This document shows, piece by piece, positions 18,497 to 33,928 of a DNA stretch of 54,161 bases; the stretch's first letter is position 1; each line of letters opens with the position of its first letter. Position numbers and translations under genes: made by a program. This DNA is from Thermoplasmataceae archaeon (lineage in GTDB: Archaea; Thermoplasmatota; Thermoplasmata; Thermoplasmatales; Thermoplasmataceae). The notes below the pieces were generated by a model. That model searched no databases, was not told the origin of the DNA, and saw nothing but the letters and a program-made list of their open reading frames with translations. The stretch lies in NCBI GenBank assembly GCA_046705365.1, contig JBJKQM010000016.1:1-54161 (forward strand), written 5' to 3'.

Positions 18497-18504
18497 TTTA
18501 TATA
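18497..18504 (+). promoter_or_regulatory. TATA-like box upstream of the four-gene membrane/ATPase operon
   Basis: TTTATATA is centred about 26 nt upstream of ATG 18526. This predicts a leaderless or near-leaderless transcript. Confidence 0.4.
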
Positions 18505-18525
18505 ACAATTACATTCTTTCCATTA

Positions 18526-18813
18526 ATGGACTTTAGTGCAATTAGTGAACTTATTTTACAAAATTCACAATTGACCGTTTCTGGTCAAATTCAAGGGATG
18601 ATGACCAGAATCTACGAGGTTGTAGCCTCAGTATCTGCTATTCTGATCGCCATTCTCTGGATCCCCATCGCGATAGGCTTTTTCAGTACTGATGAAAATA
18701 AAAGATACGAAGCCAGATTGAGGCTCAAAAATGCCATGATTGGAACTTTTGTATATGTAGTAGCCGTCAGCGGTTTTCTGTATACTTTAGTAAATTATCT
18801 TGTTACAGGATAG
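18526..18813 (+). CDS. Small two-helix hairpin membrane protein (VirB2/TrbC/CedA1-like pilin candidate)
   Basis: 95-aa ORF with two hydrophobic helices (VVASVSAILIAILWIPIAIGFF and AMIGTFVYVVAVSGFLYTLVNYLV). They are joined by a short charged loop, STDENKRYEARLRLKN. The functional call is by topology only. Confidence 0.5.
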   Translation: MDFSAISELILQNSQLTVSGQIQGMMTRIYEVVASVSAILIAILWIPIAIGFFSTDENKRYEARLRLKNAMIGTFVYVVAVSGFLYTLVNYLVTG

Positions 18814-18825
18814 GGTGCCGGTCCC

Positions 18826-19866
18826 TTGCAAGTACTCCCCATGATTCTCGGTCTGCTGAATGGGCTTGATACAATTTATAAGGCACTTATTGGAATCCTT
18901 TGGGATTCAACAATTTCTTTCGGGTTGAATCCGCATTATGCATTTCTTGTGCCATTTACTAACTATGGTAAATTCAAGATTCTTGGTTCCCTCATAACAG
19001 GAGAAGTCTTCTTTCAGTTCGCTTCTCTGGTTGTTCTTGTATCAAGCGTGATAACCCTTGCATTCAACAGCTTCAATGAACCTAAACCATACGGCAAGTA
19101 CATGGTTAGAATAACAACCGCTGTTATTCTTGGAGCAATTTCTTTTTTCCTGATGACATGGGTCCTCGCTGCTTTGGGTTCCGTTTATTCCACAATTTAC
19201 AATACCTCCGGAATTCAATGGTCTAACTTCCTTCTATTTTCCTCAAATGCGTTTGGGGGATCGAGCCAACCAGTAGTTGAAAACAATTACACTGCAATCA
19301 TTGAAATATTTGTTTTGACAGGATATTTTACGGCTGCTTTGTCCCTTTTTGCCGAACTGATGTTACGTCAGGCTCTAATGTTGCTTGCTCTTTTGCTGCT
19401 CCCATTTGGAACAGTTCTATACTCTCTGGAGCACGCAAGGAAGTTTACCGTGATCCTCTGGGAGATACTGATCGAGATGTCAGCTTATCCTTACATAGTG
19501 CTCGGGTGCCTGTATCTCGGGCATATATTCGCCTGGGATATGCCACTCCAGCTTGCTTTCCTGTTTCTGCCTTCCCTGATTCCAGGAATTATGTTCGCTA
19601 CCGGGAATAGTTTTCTGTCGGCACCGGTAATGGGCTTCATTGGAGGCCTTTCACTTTCCCGAACAGTTGGGAAAGGAGTTGAGGCGGGAAGCATTGCAGC
19701 AGGAGCAGTTGAAGGTGCTGGAGCTGCATCAACTTTCCAGCGCGGAGTCAGCTTCCCGGTTACAGAGAGGAATCCGCTTGCTAAGAACATGGTATACCAG
19801 AAAAAATCAAATGACCTGCCATGGAAGGAACTGCTTGATGAAGAACTGAAATACAGGAAAGAGTGA
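18826..19866 (+). CDS. Polytopic membrane protein (VirB6/TrbL/CedA-like candidate)
   Basis: 346-aa ORF starting at TTG 18826 or ATG 18841. It has about 6-7 TM helices and a hydrophilic Gly/Ala-rich C-terminal tail. Its stop overlaps the next gene's start (GTGA). Confidence 0.5.
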   Translation: MQVLPMILGLLNGLDTIYKALIGILWDSTISFGLNPHYAFLVPFTNYGKFKILGSLITGEVFFQFASLVVLVSSVITLAFNSFNEPKPYGKYMVRITTAVILGAISFFLMTWVLAALGSVYSTIYNTSGIQWSNFLLFSSNAFGGSSQPVVENNYTAIIEIFVLTGYFTAALSLFAELMLRQALMLLALLLLPFGTVLYSLEHARKFTVILWEILIEMSAYPYIVLGCLYLGHIFAWDMPLQLAFLFLPSLIPGIMFATGNSFLSAPVMGFIGGLSLSRTVGKGVEAGSIAAGAVEGAGAASTFQRGVSFPVTERNPLAKNMVYQKKSNDLPWKELLDEELKYRKE

Positions 19867-20525
19867 TTAAATTGCAGTACCCAAAACTGCCAAGAAATAG
19901 CTATTCCTATAAAGCATCCATATTTGGGATACCCATCCGGGATGCCTTAATATTTAGCATCATAGCCTCTATTTCAATTCTTTCAGTTAGAATTAACATT
20001 TACACCCCCATATTGGGAACTGCATCGATCGTGATTATTCTCCTTTTCAGAAGGAGACTTTTTTCAGGATTGAAAATCACCAAGAAAATTAGACTGAAAG
20101 GAAGAAAAATCAACATTTTCTTCCCGGTCAAAGTTCAGAGTCACAATGAACACCTGTTCACGCTGTTCGGAAAGAGCATTTCCATTTTTTTAGAAGTCGA
20201 AGGGATAAATATCATGGCAATTAGGGTCAATGACCAAAAAACGATTTTAGAGGGGTTGCGACACGCATTAGAGGTTTCTGAAATGAACATAGACTTTTTT
20301 TCCTGTTATCAGAGACACAGTGGGTCCAGAAATGGCATCTATTCTTTCAAGACATATGTCAGAATTTTTTCCGGAATCACCGTCTCAGATCTTGAATTGT
20401 CCATGGGTGAACTTGAAAAGAGGGTATCAAATTTTGAATCTAGTCTTGGAATTAACGGATTTCACGCAAGAGAGCTGAGGAAAAAGGAAGAAATAGAGGA
20501 TCTATTGAAAATCCTTATTCCATAG
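19863..20525 (+). CDS. 2-TM protein with soluble domain (VirB3-like plus VirB4 N-terminal-like candidate)
   Basis: 220-aa ORF with a GTG start. SIFGIPIRDALIFSIIASISIL and ILGTASIVIILLF form two TM helices. They are followed by a soluble alpha/beta region (HLFTLFGKSISIFLEVEGINIMAI...). Confidence 0.45.
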   Translation: MIKLQYPKLPRNSYSYKASIFGIPIRDALIFSIIASISILSVRINIYTPILGTASIVIILLFRRRLFSGLKITKKIRLKGRKINIFFPVKVQSHNEHLFTLFGKSISIFLEVEGINIMAIRVNDQKTILEGLRHALEVSEMNIDFFSCYQRHSGSRNGIYSFKTYVRIFSGITVSDLELSMGELEKRVSNFESSLGINGFHARELRKKEEIEDLLKILIP

Positions 20526-20537
20526 GGGCGTTATCTA

Positions 20538-21938
20538 ATGTTTAAGAAAAGAAAAGGAAGAGTTAGGGGCGATTCTAAAACCAGTTATATTGGCCACAGA
20601 AACTTCACAGAGTCCAACGTATTTTTTTCAGACATCGCTGTTTCCGAGATGGATTATGAGCTTGGGCCGTATTATCTCACTTCACTGGAAAGCTCCGGAA
20701 TACCTTTTGATCTTCGCGTCAGCCTAAGAGATGTGAATGATGCAAACAAATCAAGATTCCTGAAAAGAATGCTTTCAGAAAGGAAAACGGAGGTGAGAGT
20801 TACAGGCATAAGCATATCCGGAAACGAGACTTTGAAAAGGCAAATCTCTGACCTGGAAAATATTCTTTACCAGTACGAAAAAGAAGACGTAAAACCTGTT
20901 AACATTTCTTTAATTTTCCGAATATTTGCAGAGCACCCCGCCATATTGAATGAAAGAGTGGAAAGGGTGGCAAATGACCTTAGAATGTTTGGAATCCAGA
21001 TTGAAAAAATTAGGAGCTCCAAACGTTCCGTAGCTGATTTCTTTTCTACTGCAGTTAATAACAGGTACAACTACCTGATGAATACAAGGCACGCTGCTAC
21101 AATTGTTCCTATTTTCAGAGAACCCTCGGATAACGTGAATGGGGCAATAATAGGCGTAGATGACTTAACAGAAAGGTTTGTGAGGTATGACCCTTTTTCA
21201 CAAAACTCCCACAATATCCTTGTAATAGGAGAAACTGGCTCGGGAAAATCTTACTTCGGTAAACTGTTGCTTACAAGAAATATCAAGATAGGCACCGCTG
21301 AAAGGGCGATAATCTTTGATCCTTTGAATGAATACTTCTGCAGTTTCTTTGGTTCAGACTGCCATGAAACCGATATTCAAGGTTTTCTTGAAGAAGCAAA
21401 TTTGAAAAATTGGATTGATCATGACCCAGAAAGAACCCCAAATTGGGCCGGAGTTGTAATAATCAAACCCCGACCTGGGGACCTTGATGAGCCTGACCTG
21501 ATTTACCGGCTTCTTGAGCATATGAATTCAATGATGATGGACCAGTCGGGTCAGAGGACTCTCATCCTTATAGACGAATGCCACGTTATACTAAGAAATT
21601 CAAAAAACGGGAAAATTCTCAGCCAAATGGTTAGGCATTCTAGACACTTTAATACGGGAATTTTGAACATTTCTCAGAATACAGATGACTTCCTTAATGA
21701 AAGGACAAATTCCATTGCATTTAACAGTAACAGAATTTTCATTTTCAGAACCAGAAATTTCAAGGAACCCCACAGGAAAATATTAAAATTGGATGATTTT
21801 GACATTGAAACGCCGGAAAGGCTAATGGGGGGGAAAATGCATCCCTACTCTGAATGTATAGTCACAGACGGAGAATTCTGCAGAAAATTAAGAATTATCT
21901 CATCTCTATCAGAGGATGAGGTGCTTCAGCGTTTCTGA
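20538..21938 (+). CDS. VirB4/TrbE/CedB-like FtsK-HerA-superfamily ATPase
   Basis: 466-aa ORF with these motifs:
- Walker A: ILVIGETGSGKSYFGK (nt 21228-21251)
- AIIFDPLNEYF immediately after it
- Walker B: TLILIDECHVIL (nt 21561-21584)
- Sensor-like: GILNISQNTDDF. Confidence 0.7.
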   Translation: MFKKRKGRVRGDSKTSYIGHRNFTESNVFFSDIAVSEMDYELGPYYLTSLESSGIPFDLRVSLRDVNDANKSRFLKRMLSERKTEVRVTGISISGNETLKRQISDLENILYQYEKEDVKPVNISLIFRIFAEHPAILNERVERVANDLRMFGIQIEKIRSSKRSVADFFSTAVNNRYNYLMNTRHAATIVPIFREPSDNVNGAIIGVDDLTERFVRYDPFSQNSHNILVIGETGSGKSYFGKLLLTRNIKIGTAERAIIFDPLNEYFCSFFGSDCHETDIQGFLEEANLKNWIDHDPERTPNWAGVVIIKPRPGDLDEPDLIYRLLEHMNSMMMDQSGQRTLILIDECHVILRNSKNGKILSQMVRHSRHFNTGILNISQNTDDFLNERTNSIAFNSNRIFIFRTRNFKEPHRKILKLDDFDIETPERLMGGKMHPYSECIVTDGEFCRKLRIISSLSEDEVLQRF

Positions 21939-22228
21939 GTAGCTTTGTCTTCCTGTTTTACCTGCTCTTGTACAAGCCATAGTTCCAAAAGACCAAAGAC
22001 TACGAGGACAATAGTAAAGGAGTAAAGACCAATATCAGTCCAGGTCCCATATAAGACAGACCAAATAACATAGAAAGCCACGCCTATTGTGAGAAGCCCA
22101 AGTCCCATGAATCTTCCCCAGAAGTGTCTCCTCCAAAGGGGCAAATTTGAATCTGCTGCATCTAGTATTGCCATGATACGGTTGTTGCTAATTATCCGGA
22201 TGTATATCAGCATATCGTTATATTGCAC
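21926..22228 (-). CDS. Small 2-TM membrane protein, unknown function
   Basis: 100-aa ORF with the helices LGLLTIGVAFYVIWSVLY and LYSFTIVLVVFGLLELWLV. It is convergent with the ATPase and overlaps its 3' end by 13 nt. The start is uncertain. Confidence 0.4.
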   Translation of the reverse strand: MQYNDMLIYIRIISNNRIMAILDAADSNLPLWRRHFWGRFMGLGLLTIGVAFYVIWSVLYGTWTDIGLYSFTIVLVVFGLLELWLVQEQVKQEDKATQKR

Positions 22229-33151: not shown

Positions 33152-33928
33152 GTGGAAACGATTGGAACAAATTATATGGAAAGTGTCGTGAAAGGGCTGA
33201 TCAGAAAGTACTACCAGGAGAGGATGGACAATGTTGTCCTCGCTTTTGGCAAGGCCGGAGACAGAGTGGTTAGAAATATCAAACCACTTCAGATAAGGAG
33301 AACCGCATACCGATCAATTCAGGCCAAGGAGGAAAGGGCATTCACAATGGCTTCCCCTTCACCTGAGACAACTGAGATAGAGATATCTGAACCAGACCCT
33401 ATGAAAGTGACACTTCTTTCCAGGGAAGAGTATGAGTACAGGAAAACCCTGAACCAGTTTGACCAATGGGATGAATCACTGGAGACCGCATCTATATCCA
33501 CAACTTACTTCGGTGCAGATGGAGACTTTGAATCATTGTCTAAAGAACTCCTTAATGACATAGACAAATCCAATTCCTATGTCCTGGTTAGCGGTTTTGG
33601 GGGAACCTTTGCACAAAAAATGCATGTAAACTTTTCCAAGCTTCTCACAAAGAGGAAAATAGCACATGTGAACGTTATCATAAAACCATCAAAGGAAGAC
33701 CTGAAGAGGAGAAAACTTGCGGAAAGTGGAATAAAGGAAATTGAGGCCACAGGTGCAAGCGTAATAGTCTACGACAACCAGAAGCTGGTTGATAAACAGA
33801 AAGCTTACATTAGAGACAAATCAAAAGTCATAAGAAAAATAAATGTGGATATTGCCAGGCATGTGGAAGTCCTTTCAACAAGGCTTTCCAATGCATCTGA
33901 ACTTATAAAATATCAACTTTCTGCATAA
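33152..33928 (+). CDS. Truncated, degenerate FtsZ/tubulin-like protein (N-terminal GTPase-fold only)
   Basis: 258-aa ORF with a GTG start preceded by AAGGTAGGTG. VLVSGFGGTFAQK...VNVIIKPSKEDLKRRKLAESGIKEIEATGASVIVYDNQKL parallels the remembered FtsZ segment [12 protein letters not shown]...[41 protein letters not shown], with the same spacing. Confidence 0.5.
   Translation: METIGTNYMESVVKGLIRKYYQERMDNVVLAFGKAGDRVVRNIKPLQIRRTAYRSIQAKEERAFTMASPSPETTEIEISEPDPMKVTLLSREEYEYRKTLNQFDQWDESLETASISTTYFGADGDFESLSKELLNDIDKSNSYVLVSGFGGTFAQKMHVNFSKLLTKRKIAHVNVIIKPSKEDLKRRKLAESGIKEIEATGASVIVYDNQKLVDKQKAYIRDKSKVIRKINVDIARHVEVLSTRLSNASELIKYQLSA

Follow-up and report, generated by a model that had tools for sequence, protein, structure and literature searches.

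The window is a 54,161-nt (54-kb) stretch of a contig from a Thermoplasmataceae archaeon. It holds a block of four ORFs, all on the + strand and in the order g1-g2-g3-g4 (by direct reading of the ORFs), with a candidate promoter in front and a small convergent ORF behind:

18497..18504, + strand: TATA-like box TTTATATA, candidate promoter (sequence read directly)
18526..18813, + strand: g1, 95 aa, ATG start; candidate T4SS (VirB2-class) pilin
18826..19866, + strand: g2, 346 aa, TTG start; polytopic membrane protein in a VirB6/CedA-like position
19863..20525, + strand: g3, 220 aa, GTG start; N-terminal fragment of a split VirB4
20538..21938, + strand: g4, 466 aa, ATG start; C-terminal fragment of the split VirB4
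21926..22228, - strand: g5, conserved ORF with two transmembrane (TM) segments, 82-100 aa; convergent to g4

g1 and g2 are 12 nt apart, g2 and g3 overlap in a start/stop GTGA (19863-19866), and g3 and g4 are again 12 nt apart. The box TTTATATA lies 22-29 nt 5' of the ATG of g1, directly after the stop codon of a thioesterase gene, and most related loci have an equivalent A/T box at about -29 from g1. This geometry would suit the promoter of a leaderless polycistronic mRNA. The operon reads as one promoter-proximal unit of a candidate hairpin pilin (g1), a polytopic protein (g2), and a two-polypeptide VirB4 (g3 and g4). The ORFs, spacings, and TATA box of the original prediction were all reproduced on re-reading.

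The original prediction did not include g5. The likely start of g5 is M19, which gives an 82-aa protein (21926-22174), and the gene overlaps the 3' end of g4 by 13 nt. The family alignment has the motif FY..WS..Y.TW.D.GLYSF...FG, and g5 has no match in Pfam. In 55 loci it was found directly beside the VirB4 3' end, and the linkage persists where the other flanks are rearranged (L036, L055, and L059 from Cuniculiplasma, and L037 from Thermoplasma). Judging from linkage alone, g5 is probably an accessory subunit.

The split VirB4 ATPase

Together, g3 and g4 are a true full-length VirB4. Three lines of evidence make this identification decisive. First, VirB4 models head the NCBIfam results for g4: VirB4_plasma (4e-21), CD1110-type VirB4 (3e-19), TraC (1.5e-15), CedB (4.9e-10), and VirB4_CagE (8e-10). 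(In Pfam, g4 scores above the gathering thresholds of both AAA_10, with 54.3 bits against 27.5, and DUF87, with 34.6 against 23.2.) In the g3 family, 6 of 28 members match the N-terminal part of VirB4_plasma, with a best E-value of 1.5e-5.

Second, about half of the relatives carry the counterpart of g3 and g4 as one gene, which the original prediction had missed. The AlphaFold model of a fused, 691-aa syntenic ortholog (P0018) has a pLDDT of 88 and a pTM of 0.86. In a Foldseek search of the PDB, its best 14 matches are full-length TrwK/VirB4 structures, including the N-terminal domain (E = 1e-22 to 1e-18 over ~700-770 columns).

Third, both fragments are collinear with this fused protein: g3 with residues 5-170 and g4 with residues 228-688 (45% identity).

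By hydropathy, g3 has two N-terminal TM segments and g4 has none. We conclude that g3 is a VirB3-like two-TM hairpin joined to the first subdomain of the VirB4 N-terminal domain, arising by recurrent gene fission, and that g4 is the remainder of that domain plus the RecA-like ATPase domain. The earlier description of g3 as VirB3-like was right about the hairpin but incomplete, as g3 also carries the first part of VirB4. The four motifs reported for g4 are present as described: GETGSGKS (Walker A, 231-238), FDPLNEY (260-266), LILIDECH (Walker B, 342-349), and ISQNTDDF (378-385). Residues G231-S238, D261/P262/L263/E265/Y266, E347/H349, and Q380/N381/D384 are invariant in all 19 aligned family members.

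Public annotations of relatives read "HerA-like", "DUF87", or "Cdc6-like", and the PHROGs family phrog_2666 ("terminase large subunit") matches across the P-loop region at 3.3e-16. On that basis, g4 could be taken for a repair helicase of the HerA type or a packaging/terminase ATPase from a virus, and its membrane neighbors for unrelated genes. That explanation is refuted. In the fused-ortholog model, the matches to HerA (best E = 4e-9), FtsK (best 3e-8), and packaging ATPases are confined to the P-loop domain, and the NCBIfam model for HerA gives g4 just 0.018. Also, the ATPase has a TM anchor and a T4SS pilin gene in its operon, and neither a NurA gene nor a capsid gene lies close by. The full-length match to TrwK/VirB4 (E = 1e-22) rules out the HerA-type or packaging identity, in agreement with the original prediction.

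In the window, an in-frame TAG parts g3 from g4. Among the split pairs, 25 of 31 are in different frames, with junction offsets from -89 to +107 nt (using longest-ORF calls), yet the junction always falls in the same linker. The split is ancient and recurrent.

The candidate pilin and the polytopic membrane protein

Hydropathy predicts that g1 is a hairpin of two TM segments with a basic loop between them. The window's own g1 matches Pfam's T4SS_pilin (PF18895) with E = 1.5e-4 and 22.2 bits, which is under the gathering score of 26.6, but 26 of the 28 members of its family match PF18895, with a best E-value of 6.8e-7. It also matches NCBIfam's Mycoplasma model for the Mbov_0395 ICE pilin-like protein (1.7e-5; 24 bits versus an equivalog cut-off of 40). 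As a family, then, g1 belongs to T4SS_pilin, with the window's own copy below the threshold. This bears out the VirB2-type hairpin of the original prediction. The g1 family has the invariant motif LW.P.A..F..(D)E...N A..GT, and g1 is the best-conserved protein of the block (57% mean column identity), more so than rpiA or Trm1. A profile comparison of g1 and g2 did not reproduce the N-terminal homology of VirB2 and VirB6 that has been reported for Ced.

The public gene call for g2 starts five codons downstream, which gives 341 aa. Hydropathy indicates at least five TM segments. The AlphaFold model has six long helices within residues 3-258, followed by a disordered hydrophilic tail (pLDDT is 67.5 overall and 70-87 in the TM core), and a C-terminal helix, PWKELL..ELKYRKE, is retained in the family. 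Neither g2 nor its family matches any sequence in Pfam, NCBIfam, or the PDB. When the model was compared to the PDB with Foldseek, the best four matches were TrwI/VirB6 of R388, at non-significant levels (E = 0.39-1.3, probability 0.54-0.63, TM-score 0.31-0.42). In 67 loci, g2 invariably sits between g1 and VirB4. The topology, the position, and these top-ranked but non-significant matches are only suggestive that g2 is a VirB6; the VirB6/CedA-like label given to it earlier fits the topology and position, but the assignment is weak.

Chromosomal context and inheritance

Intact ORFs of the block are found in the genomes of about 64 Thermoplasmata species. In about 40-48 of 71 species loci, the block lies in a shared context, between MarR-rpiA-thioesterase on one side and DHNA-Trm1 (sometimes preceded by an ABC gene) on the other, and this context is retained down to 45% identity of the ATPase. 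Distances for the block correlate with distances for housekeeping genes (Mantel r = 0.84-0.93; none of 999 permutations reached such a value). The block's GC content and codon usage are unremarkable. Its family hardly occurs in 2.9 million viral contigs, and its relatives on plasmids are all remote (identity no higher than 30%).

All 43 of the other scanned ORFs in the window have housekeeping roles; a relaxase, coupling protein, or integrase was not among them. Nor is there a DNA-processing gene (relaxase, nuclease, ParA/VirC1, HerA, or Rad50) beside the block in the window, or an integrase or att-like feature near it. Housekeeping genes stand between the block and the one tRNA in the vicinity (15680-15783). 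Given the shared context, the co-divergence with housekeeping genes, and the absence of a relaxase, coupling protein, or integrase, the block is a domesticated, vertically inherited module. The checks of synteny and composition thus came out as the original prediction of a chromosomal locus with housekeeping flanks would have it. Nor did we find a non-T4SS ATPase, a lack of T4SS likeness in the membrane proteins, or a bounded mobile element, the three outcomes it had named as counting against it.

The in-frame TAG within VirB4 and the missing partner genes (relaxase and coupling protein) could instead indicate what is left of an integrated plasmid or conjugative element that is decaying in place. 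This is effectively refuted by the intact ORFs in a fixed, co-diverging context, by the age and recurrence of the split at one linker, by the conservation of g1, by the native composition, and by the lack of integration features.

Another possibility is donor-type conjugation, with an unlinked VirD4/TraG-like coupling ATPase helping to mobilize chromosomal DNA or resident plasmids outward. The closest plasmid relatives of the block's VirB4 do sit on archaeal conjugative plasmids or megaplasmids. However, archaeal conjugative plasmids have their own VirB4, so they would not need the block's. Also, there is no coupling ATPase in the 54-kb window or beside the block in the 71 loci, in a gene-order survey that searched only for homologues of window genes. 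We consider export quite unlikely.

Possible function and comparison with known systems

By analogy to Ced and Ted, we lean towards cell-to-cell DNA exchange as the most likely use of this minimal, T4SS-derived machine. As it is inherited at the same spot across Thermoplasmata, it is a strong candidate for the DNA exchange machine of these wall-less, acid-loving cells. Thermoplasmata cells are enclosed by a single membrane and have neither a wall nor an S-layer, so a set of three to five proteins would be enough to span the envelope. In our proposed mechanism, g3 and g4 would form a VirB4 hexamer that is held at the membrane by the VirB3-like hairpin of g3 and docks onto a channel or platform of g2; docking could plausibly take place at the C-terminal helix of g2, which is invariant and cytoplasmic. 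Driven by ATP hydrolysis, g1 would be pulled out of the membrane and would polymerize, probably together with lipids, to form a short conduit or a conjugative-type pilus. The block has neither a linked relaxase nor a linked coupling ATPase, so the substrate would probably be chromosomal DNA; repair functions of the host might process it, and it would then recombine in the recipient.

As precedents, the chromosomal VirB2/VirB6/VirB4 sets known as Ced and Ted serve in DNA import (PMC9905601), and in Mycoplasma, which has no wall, the cell with the T4SS is the one that receives chromosomal DNA (PMC4251992). A point against our proposal is that a 2025 cryo-EM survey of surface filaments from Thermoplasmatales does not mention a conjugative-type pilus (PMC12448462). 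By analogy, transfer may be in the import direction, as in Ced, or bidirectional.

T4SS-derived machines are also known to secrete proteins or act in adhesion. The same apparatus might serve as a pilus for adhesion or contact, or it might convey proteins, lipids, or metabolites, for instance in contacts between Thermoplasmatales and DPANN archaea (ARMAN/Micrarchaeota). In favor of such a role, the block lacks a linked relaxase, coupling protein, or gene for DNA processing, and Thermoplasmatales do interact physically with Micrarchaeota and Parvarchaeota (PMC5864196; PMC6336744). In L068, from a GC-rich Thermoplasmata lineage, the gene immediately upstream of the block encodes a 1777-aa surface protein with PKD domains, which hints at a contact function. 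But all characterized minimal archaeal VirB2/VirB6/VirB4 sets (Ced and Ted) move DNA (PMC9905601), the nearest sequence models are conjugative-transfer proteins (Mycoplasma ICE, CD1110, TraC), and the locus survey found no conserved effector-like gene. A role that does not involve DNA is possible but on the unlikely side.

Our preferred reading, DNA exchange, can be set against four kinds of known systems. In the inner-membrane complex of R388 (TrwM/VirB3-TrwK/VirB4-TrwI/VirB6), TrwK is the best structural match for the block's ATPase (full-length, TM-score about 0.55-0.6) and TrwI is the top-ranked but weak match for g2, at sequence identities of about 10-13%. The R388 system is plasmid-borne, belongs to diderms, and has at least 11 proteins; it includes an outer-membrane core as well as VirB11, VirD4, and a relaxase.

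The nearest plasmid-borne relatives of the ATPase are the VirB4 proteins of archaeal conjugative plasmids (the Sulfolobus pNOB8 family, a Thermococcus nautili plasmid, and haloarchaeal megaplasmids), and these are remote (21-33% identity by tblastn; 1e-36 to 1e-64 with the block's family HMM). HMMs for g1, g2, and g5 found nothing in these plasmid VirB4 loci, so only the ATPase is common to both. Unlike the block, the plasmid loci also hold genes for an integrase, for replication, or for a toxin-antitoxin pair.

Among curated models, those that score best for g1 and for g3/g4 come from the MPF_FATA modules of monoderm bacteria, especially Mycoplasma ICE (Mbov_0395, pilin-like, and Mbov_0397, VirB4). 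Like the block's host, Mycoplasma has a single membrane and no wall. However, the block scores far under the equivalog cut-offs (74 bits versus 590 for VirB4, and similarly for the pilin), and the Mycoplasma genes lie on an ICE that is mobile and supplies a transposase and transfer functions of its own, whereas the block is fixed in the chromosome.

Ced (CedA/CedA1/CedA2/CedB, in Sulfolobales) and Ted (TedA/TedB/TedC, in Thermoproteales) are, like the block, chromosomal and non-mobile sets of a VirB2-like pilin, a polytopic protein in the VirB6 position, and a VirB4-like ATPase, and they too lack a relaxase and a coupling protein. Just as Ced and Ted differ from each other in this respect (PMC9905601), the block has membrane components whose sequences are specific to its lineage, and g5 parallels CedA2 in size and position only. 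There are also several differences. g4 scores 38.7 bits on the CedB equivalog (cut-off 700), which is lower than on bacterial VirB4 models; the block's VirB4 bears a hairpin of TM segments like that of VirB3 and has recurrently been divided into two polypeptides; its pilin falls in PF18895, a monoderm-type family; and it does not have the ParA, HerA, or Rad50 neighbors of Ted loci. The same cluster in Cuniculiplasma was already listed as "type IV secretion components", with arCOG numbers, by Golyshina et al. in 2016 (PMC5155288), so the novelty first claimed for it was overstated. The host belongs to another phylum, Thermoplasmatota, and, unlike the hosts of Ced and Ted, has no wall or S-layer. 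As judged from its sequences, the block is not a sequence-level member of Ced or Ted but resembles them in architecture.

Layout of the block and its membrane proteins

The four genes of the block lie on the forward strand behind a TATA-like box, and a small fifth gene converges on the last of them:

18497-18504: TATA-like box TTTATATA, 22-29 nt upstream of the g1 ATG and right after the stop codon of the upstream thioesterase gene
18526-18813, + strand: g1, the candidate pilin, 95 aa
18826-19866, + strand: g2, a polytopic membrane protein, 346 aa, TTG start
19863-20525, + strand: g3, the N-terminal fragment of a split VirB4, 220 aa, GTG start
20538-21938, + strand: g4, the C-terminal fragment of the split VirB4, 466 aa
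21926-22228, - strand: g5, an ORF of 82-100 aa with two transmembrane (TM) segments, convergent with g4 and overlapping it by 13 nt

All four reading frames of the block were recovered at the coordinates of the original prediction, and the spacings that it described are also correct: 12 nt separate g1 from g2, g2 and g3 overlap at a GTGA start/stop, and g3 and g4 are 12 nt apart. This is an operon-like packing. The topologies were borne out by hydropathy and AlphaFold, with two TM segments in g1, six long helices and a disordered tail in g2 (at least five TM segments by hydropathy), two TM segments at the N terminus of g3, and none in g4. The A/T promoter-like box ahead of g1 is present, and most of the related loci likewise carry an A/T box in front of g1, at about -29. 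Judging from its sequence, the box fits a putative archaeal promoter for a leaderless polycistronic transcript.

The related loci come from a genome scan that took one genome per species (71 loci, nearly all from Thermoplasmata). Iterative HMM searches of these loci found g1 in 64, g2 in 67, and g5 in 55. A small MarR-type winged-helix regulator is encoded beside rpiA, upstream of the block (16839-17210, + strand); it is kept in 42 loci, and it stays near the block in rearranged Cuniculiplasma loci as well. This regulator is a candidate for controlling the operon.

Of the proteins of the block, g1 is the most conserved. It has TM segments at residues 32-50 and 71-89 (by hydropathy) with a conserved basic loop between them. 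In an alignment of the family, about 25 variable N-terminal residues are followed by an almost invariant core, LWIPIA..FFS.DE..+..A..RLKNA.IGT. The protein from the window matches the T4SS_pilin family of Pfam (PF18895) with 22.2 bits (E = 1.5e-4), slightly short of the gathering score (26.6), and it matches the NCBIfam model for pilin-like proteins of Mycoplasma ICEs (E = 1.7e-5). The pilin signal is shared by the family: 26 of 28 orthologs independently match PF18895 with E = 0.01 or better (best, 6.8e-7). A g1 profile searched against the sequences in PDB gave chance matches only, to cytochrome oxidases.

For g2, searches of Pfam, NCBIfam, and PHROGs with the single protein, of Pfam and NCBIfam with 28 relatives, and of PDB sequences with the family profile gave no matches. 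Neither the protein from the window nor the 28 family members have sequence-profile similarity to VirB6/TrbL or CedA. The AlphaFold model of g2 reaches a pLDDT of 67.5 as a whole and of 70-87 within the TM core. (A homolog search with a diverse g2 alignment, which was meant to deepen the multiple alignment, added at least two further sequences; with so few gained, the pLDDT stayed where it was.) When this model, with its pLDDT of 67.5, was compared to 350,542 PDB chains with Foldseek, the best four were all TrwI, the VirB6 of R388 (E = 0.39-1.3, probability 0.54-0.63, TM-score 0.31-0.42). The view that g2 is VirB6-like draws chiefly on its topology and its invariant place between the pilin and VirB4, which it occupies in 67 loci; the fold likeness, which comes from a predicted structure, is no more than suggestive.

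The C-terminal helix of g2 is nearly invariant (PW.ELL..ELKYRKE). In the window's protein it is an amphipathic helix at residues 332-345 (PWKELL.EELKYRKE), which follows a disordered and poorly conserved linker of about 70 residues. It resembles a short linear docking motif and is plausibly a docking site for the ATPase. An N-terminal homology between VirB2 and VirB6 has been reported for Ced and for Agrobacterium; a profile-profile comparison of g1 and g2 did not reproduce it (probability 0.6%).

The convergent gene g5, which was missing from the original prediction, has no match in Pfam. It contains a strongly conserved motif, FY..WS..Y.TW.D.GLYSF...FG, lies beside VirB4 in 55 related loci, and remains attached where the other flanks are rearranged.

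The VirB4 motor and its fission

The ATPase motifs that were originally described in g4, GETGSGKS and LILIDECH among them, were confirmed, and in an alignment of 19 family members their key residues do not vary. In Pfam, g4 matches AAA_10 with 54.3 bits (gathering score 27.5) and DUF87 with 34.6 bits (gathering score 23.2). In NCBIfam, VirB4 models rank first: VirB4 of Mycoplasma ICEs (E = 4e-21), CD1110-type VirB4 (3e-19), and F-type TraC (1.5e-15). These are followed by CedB (4.9e-10), VirB4/CagE (8e-10), coupling proteins (0.008 or above), and HerA (0.018). All of the scores to named VirB4 families are below the curated cut-offs (37.5 vs. 643 bits for TIGR00929, 74.4 vs. 590 for NF045975, 68.9 vs. 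325 for NF045971, and 56.2 vs. 567 for TIGR02746). Since g4 falls far short of these equivalog cut-offs, it represents a divergent lineage of its own and not a named VirB4 subfamily. By fold and by Pfam domain, g3/g4 is a member of the VirB4 superfamily, outside all of the curated subfamilies.

We found 118 homologs of the ATPase. Named sources are available for a minority of them, and these are all Thermoplasmatota. The VirB4 ortholog of Thermoplasma acidophilum is CAC11731.1 (Q9HKK6). Many of the homologs measure about 685 aa, as much as g3 and g4 combined. One of them, P0018 (691 aa), is a syntenic ortholog in which the two parts are fused; by BLASTP, g3 is collinear with its residues 5-170 and g4 with its residues 228-688. 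We looked for the N-terminal domain of VirB4 in this fused protein, using an AlphaFold model built from an alignment of 63 sequences that included g3 and g4 (pLDDT 88.1, pTM 0.86).

The original prediction held that the ATPase is of the VirB4 type. The main alternatives were HerA, a terminase, or a viral packaging ATPase. The best 14 PDB matches to the P0018 model are all full-length TrwK, the VirB4 of R388 (E = 1e-22 to 1e-18, with about 700-770 aligned columns), and the C-terminal domain of Thermoanaerobacter VirB4 comes next. In contrast, HerA, FtsK, DndH, and viral packaging ATPases cover the P-loop domain only, with E = 4e-9 or worse, which rules out these alternatives. Because the fold match to TrwK is full-length, and with VirB4 models at the top in NCBIfam, we conclude that the motor is a genuine VirB4. 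According to its predicted structure, it is a VirB4 with the VirB4 N-terminal domain and a VirB3-type N-terminal membrane anchor of two helices. The public labels of these proteins (DUF87, HerA-like, Cdc6-like, or hypothetical) seem to need correction.

It had also been proposed that g3 is a VirB3. This fits its VirB3-like two-TM hairpin, but g3 also holds the subdomain with which the VirB4 N-terminal domain begins. The N-terminal part of the VirB4_plasma model is matched by six of 28 members of the g3 family (best E = 1.5e-5).

VirB4 is a single fused protein in 36 of the related loci and is split in 31. Every junction falls at around residues 218-239 in the numbering of the fused form, in a linker that the model predicts with low confidence. 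In the window, g3 and g4 share a reading frame and are parted by a TAG plus 12 nt (20523-20537), as might be expected if a nonsense mutation had arisen recently. This is ruled out by the other split loci: in 25 of the 31 pairs, the two parts are in different frames, with junction offsets of -89 to +107 nt (from longest-ORF calls). Such a pattern indicates a stable and recurrent gene fission. TAG is the codon for pyrrolysine in some Thermoplasmata (Methanomassiliicoccales), and the TAG between g3 and g4 might be imagined to be a recoding site. The differing frames count against this as well, and readthrough as the rule seems unlikely, though it may occur in this particular genome. For the domain organization of VirB4, the recurrent fission amounts to a natural experiment.

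Our scan for GETGSGKS[FY] also drew a few bacterial VirB4-like genes (loci L070, L073, and L074). In L070, from a Saccharibacteria (CPR) metagenome-assembled genome, a separate g3-like ORF of 210 aa lies directly upstream of a 583-aa VirB4. This arrangement echoes the published tie between the VirB4s of Patescibacteria and those of monoderms or archaea (PMC12102498).

Chromosomal context and vertical inheritance

We then considered whether the block belongs to a mobile element. We scanned 43 other ORFs in the 54-kb window, and every one is a housekeeping gene, among them rpiA, a 4HBT thioesterase, an ABC-2 exporter, DHNA, Trm1, UbiA, GGGP synthase, PurL, aIF2-beta, ThiI, Kdp, HMG-CoA reductase, PurB, and malic enzyme. 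None of the 43 is an integrase, a relaxase, a VirD4/TraG coupling protein, or a replication gene. The same neighborhood extends over at least 20 kb in genomes whose ATPases are 57% and only 45% identical. Of the related loci, 42-48 have MarR-rpiA-thioesterase upstream of the block, and about 40 have DHNA-Trm1 downstream of it.

The block has also diverged along with its neighbors. Pairwise distances for g1, g2, and g4 correlate with those for the housekeeping proteins RpiA and Trm1 (r = 0.84, 0.90, and 0.93, respectively; none of 999 Mantel permutations were as high). This is comparable in tightness to the correlation between RpiA and Trm1 themselves (r = 0.86). The GC content of the block is 0.407, as compared to 0.431 for the window (12th percentile), and its codon usage is also unremarkable. 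This native composition rules out a recent horizontal acquisition.

Among 2.9 million viral contigs, the family is essentially absent. The relatives on plasmids are remote ATPases only, with at most 30% identity, from haloarchaeal megaplasmids, a Thermococcus plasmid, and pNOB8-type plasmids; HMMs for g1, g2, and g5 detected nothing in the T4SS loci of these haloarchaeal, Thermococcus, and pNOB8 plasmids. From the fixed context, the co-divergence, the native composition, the near-absence from viral contigs, and the remoteness of the plasmid relatives, we conclude that the block is a chromosomal feature that has been inherited vertically, under purifying selection. As the original prediction had it, the block is chromosomal and lies outside of any mobile element: its context is fixed across species, its flanks are housekeeping genes, and it co-diverges with them. 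An ICE or a conjugative plasmid, or the decaying remnant of one, is ruled out by the context, the co-divergence, the composition, and the pattern of VirB4 fission.

A 104-nt tRNA gene lies 2.7 kb upstream of the block (15680-15783, - strand; Rfam score 51.8 bits). (ARAGORN missed it, presumably because the gene holds an intron.) It is ruled out as an att site, as syntenic housekeeping genes stand between it and the block.

Several other features of these loci are worth recording. On the chromosome of a Ferroplasma sp. (CP133597.1; L076, 13128-15170), the block consists of three genes, of 85, 308, and 678 aa, with no g5 beside them, and it lies in a different housekeeping context, with a Dam-like methyltransferase upstream and a Hel308-type helicase about 2 kb downstream. 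A divergent lineage of Thermoplasmata metagenome-assembled genomes, with around 70% GC, is represented by L068 (1492-6825) and a similar group (L064-L072); there, both g1 (114-210 aa) and g2 (386-497 aa) are larger. In L068, the gene just before the block encodes a 1777-aa surface protein with PKD/Ig domains, glycosylation genes follow downstream, and none of 10 flanking ORFs scanned is an integrase. Finally, a 258-aa ORF in the window (33152-33928, + strand) has a weak match to the Tubulin/FtsZ GTPase domain (E = 7.4e-6, 26.8 bits vs. a gathering score of 33); it could be a CetZ/FtsZ-like protein that is divergent or truncated.

Proposed function and comparison with Ced and Ted

By analogy with Ced and Ted and with what is established for T4SSs in general, g3 and g4 would form a membrane-tethered VirB4 hexamer on a platform of g2. 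With ATP, this complex would draw g1 from the membrane and polymerize it into a conjugative-type pilus or a short conduit. In cells that are bounded by one membrane and lack a wall, a small set of proteins could span the whole envelope. Since the block is immobile and lacks both a relaxase and a coupling protein, the simplest assumption for its substrate is chromosomal DNA, which would pass between conspecific cells and then be fixed by homologous recombination.

Two precedents support the exchange of DNA. First, Ced and Ted import DNA (PMC9905601); Ced is switched on by DNA damage, and the cell expressing it is the one that takes up the DNA. Second, in Mycoplasma, which are also wall-less, chromosomal DNA flows into the cell that bears the T4SS (PMC4251992). 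The best curated matches of both g1 and g3/g4 are to Mycoplasma ICE proteins. Wherever it could be checked, the original interpretation is supported, and it is plausible that the block is a DNA-transfer machine. The main rival is a role in contact or secretion that does not involve DNA, for instance towards DPANN partners. In the L068 lineage, the surface protein with PKD domains that is encoded next to the block, on its upstream side, hints at such a role, and the import of DNA by Ced and Ted and the flow of DNA in Mycoplasma speak for DNA transfer.

Taking DNA transfer as the function, a fuller picture is that the block encodes a third, independently domesticated T4SS-derived organelle, whose vertical inheritance goes back nearly to the root of the order. 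This organelle would extend a lipid-bound pilus from a naked single membrane, exchange chromosomal DNA, underlie the pervasive homologous recombination of Ferroplasma and other acid-mine Thermoplasmatales, perhaps act as a conduit to DPANN, and run on a two-polypeptide VirB4 that has repeatedly been split and re-fused at one linker. We offer this whole picture tentatively, as a serious possibility that falls somewhat short of probable. To our knowledge, the mechanism of recombination in Ferroplasma populations is not known, and the block is a concrete candidate for it. (The extensive recombination in natural Ferroplasma populations is from Eppley et al. 2007, as cited in PMC12350378.)

The original prediction suggested that such a module might be new in this group. 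In fact, Golyshina et al. 2016 (PMC5155288) had already listed the Cuniculiplasma cluster as components of type IV secretion (arCOG05340, the VirB4 arCOG04034, the multipass arCOG05369, and a membrane protein found only in Thermoplasmatales), and an E-plasma genome paper mentions a VirB4 component. We did not find any paper that analyzes the cluster, links it to Ced or Ted, or reports the order-wide synteny or the fission of VirB4. In reviews up to the end of 2025, Ced and Ted are the only reduced archaeal T4SSs named, and conjugative pili go unmentioned in a 2025 cryo-EM study of the pili of Thermoplasmatales. The cluster is partly annotated already and functionally uncharacterized.

If our reading is correct, then archaea have domesticated conjugation machinery on at least three occasions. 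Reduced T4SSs would also reach into cells that lack both a wall and an S-layer, where an envelope-spanning machine might require only three to five proteins. This would be an attractive minimal system for structural work.

How similar is the block to Ced and Ted, whose hosts are both crenarchaeal? By sequence, it is unlike Ced: g4 scores just 38.7 bits against the CedB model (NF041017), as compared to a cut-off of 700, and this is below its scores to bacterial VirB4 models. None of the Ced-named models in NCBIfam match g1 or g2 with E of 1 or better. In its gene neighborhood, it is also unlike Ted, which is frequently linked to ParA/VirC1-like, HerA-like, and Rad50 genes; none of these are near the block, either in the window or in the syntenic loci with Pfam annotation. 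So the proposal of a Ced/Ted-type module does not hold in the sense of sequence-level membership in Ced. It does hold for the organization of the system. Like Ced, the block is chromosomal and non-mobile and has neither a relaxase nor a coupling protein, and it shares with both Ced and Ted a three-part architecture, in which g2 takes the VirB6 position, and a chromosomal, relaxase-less status.
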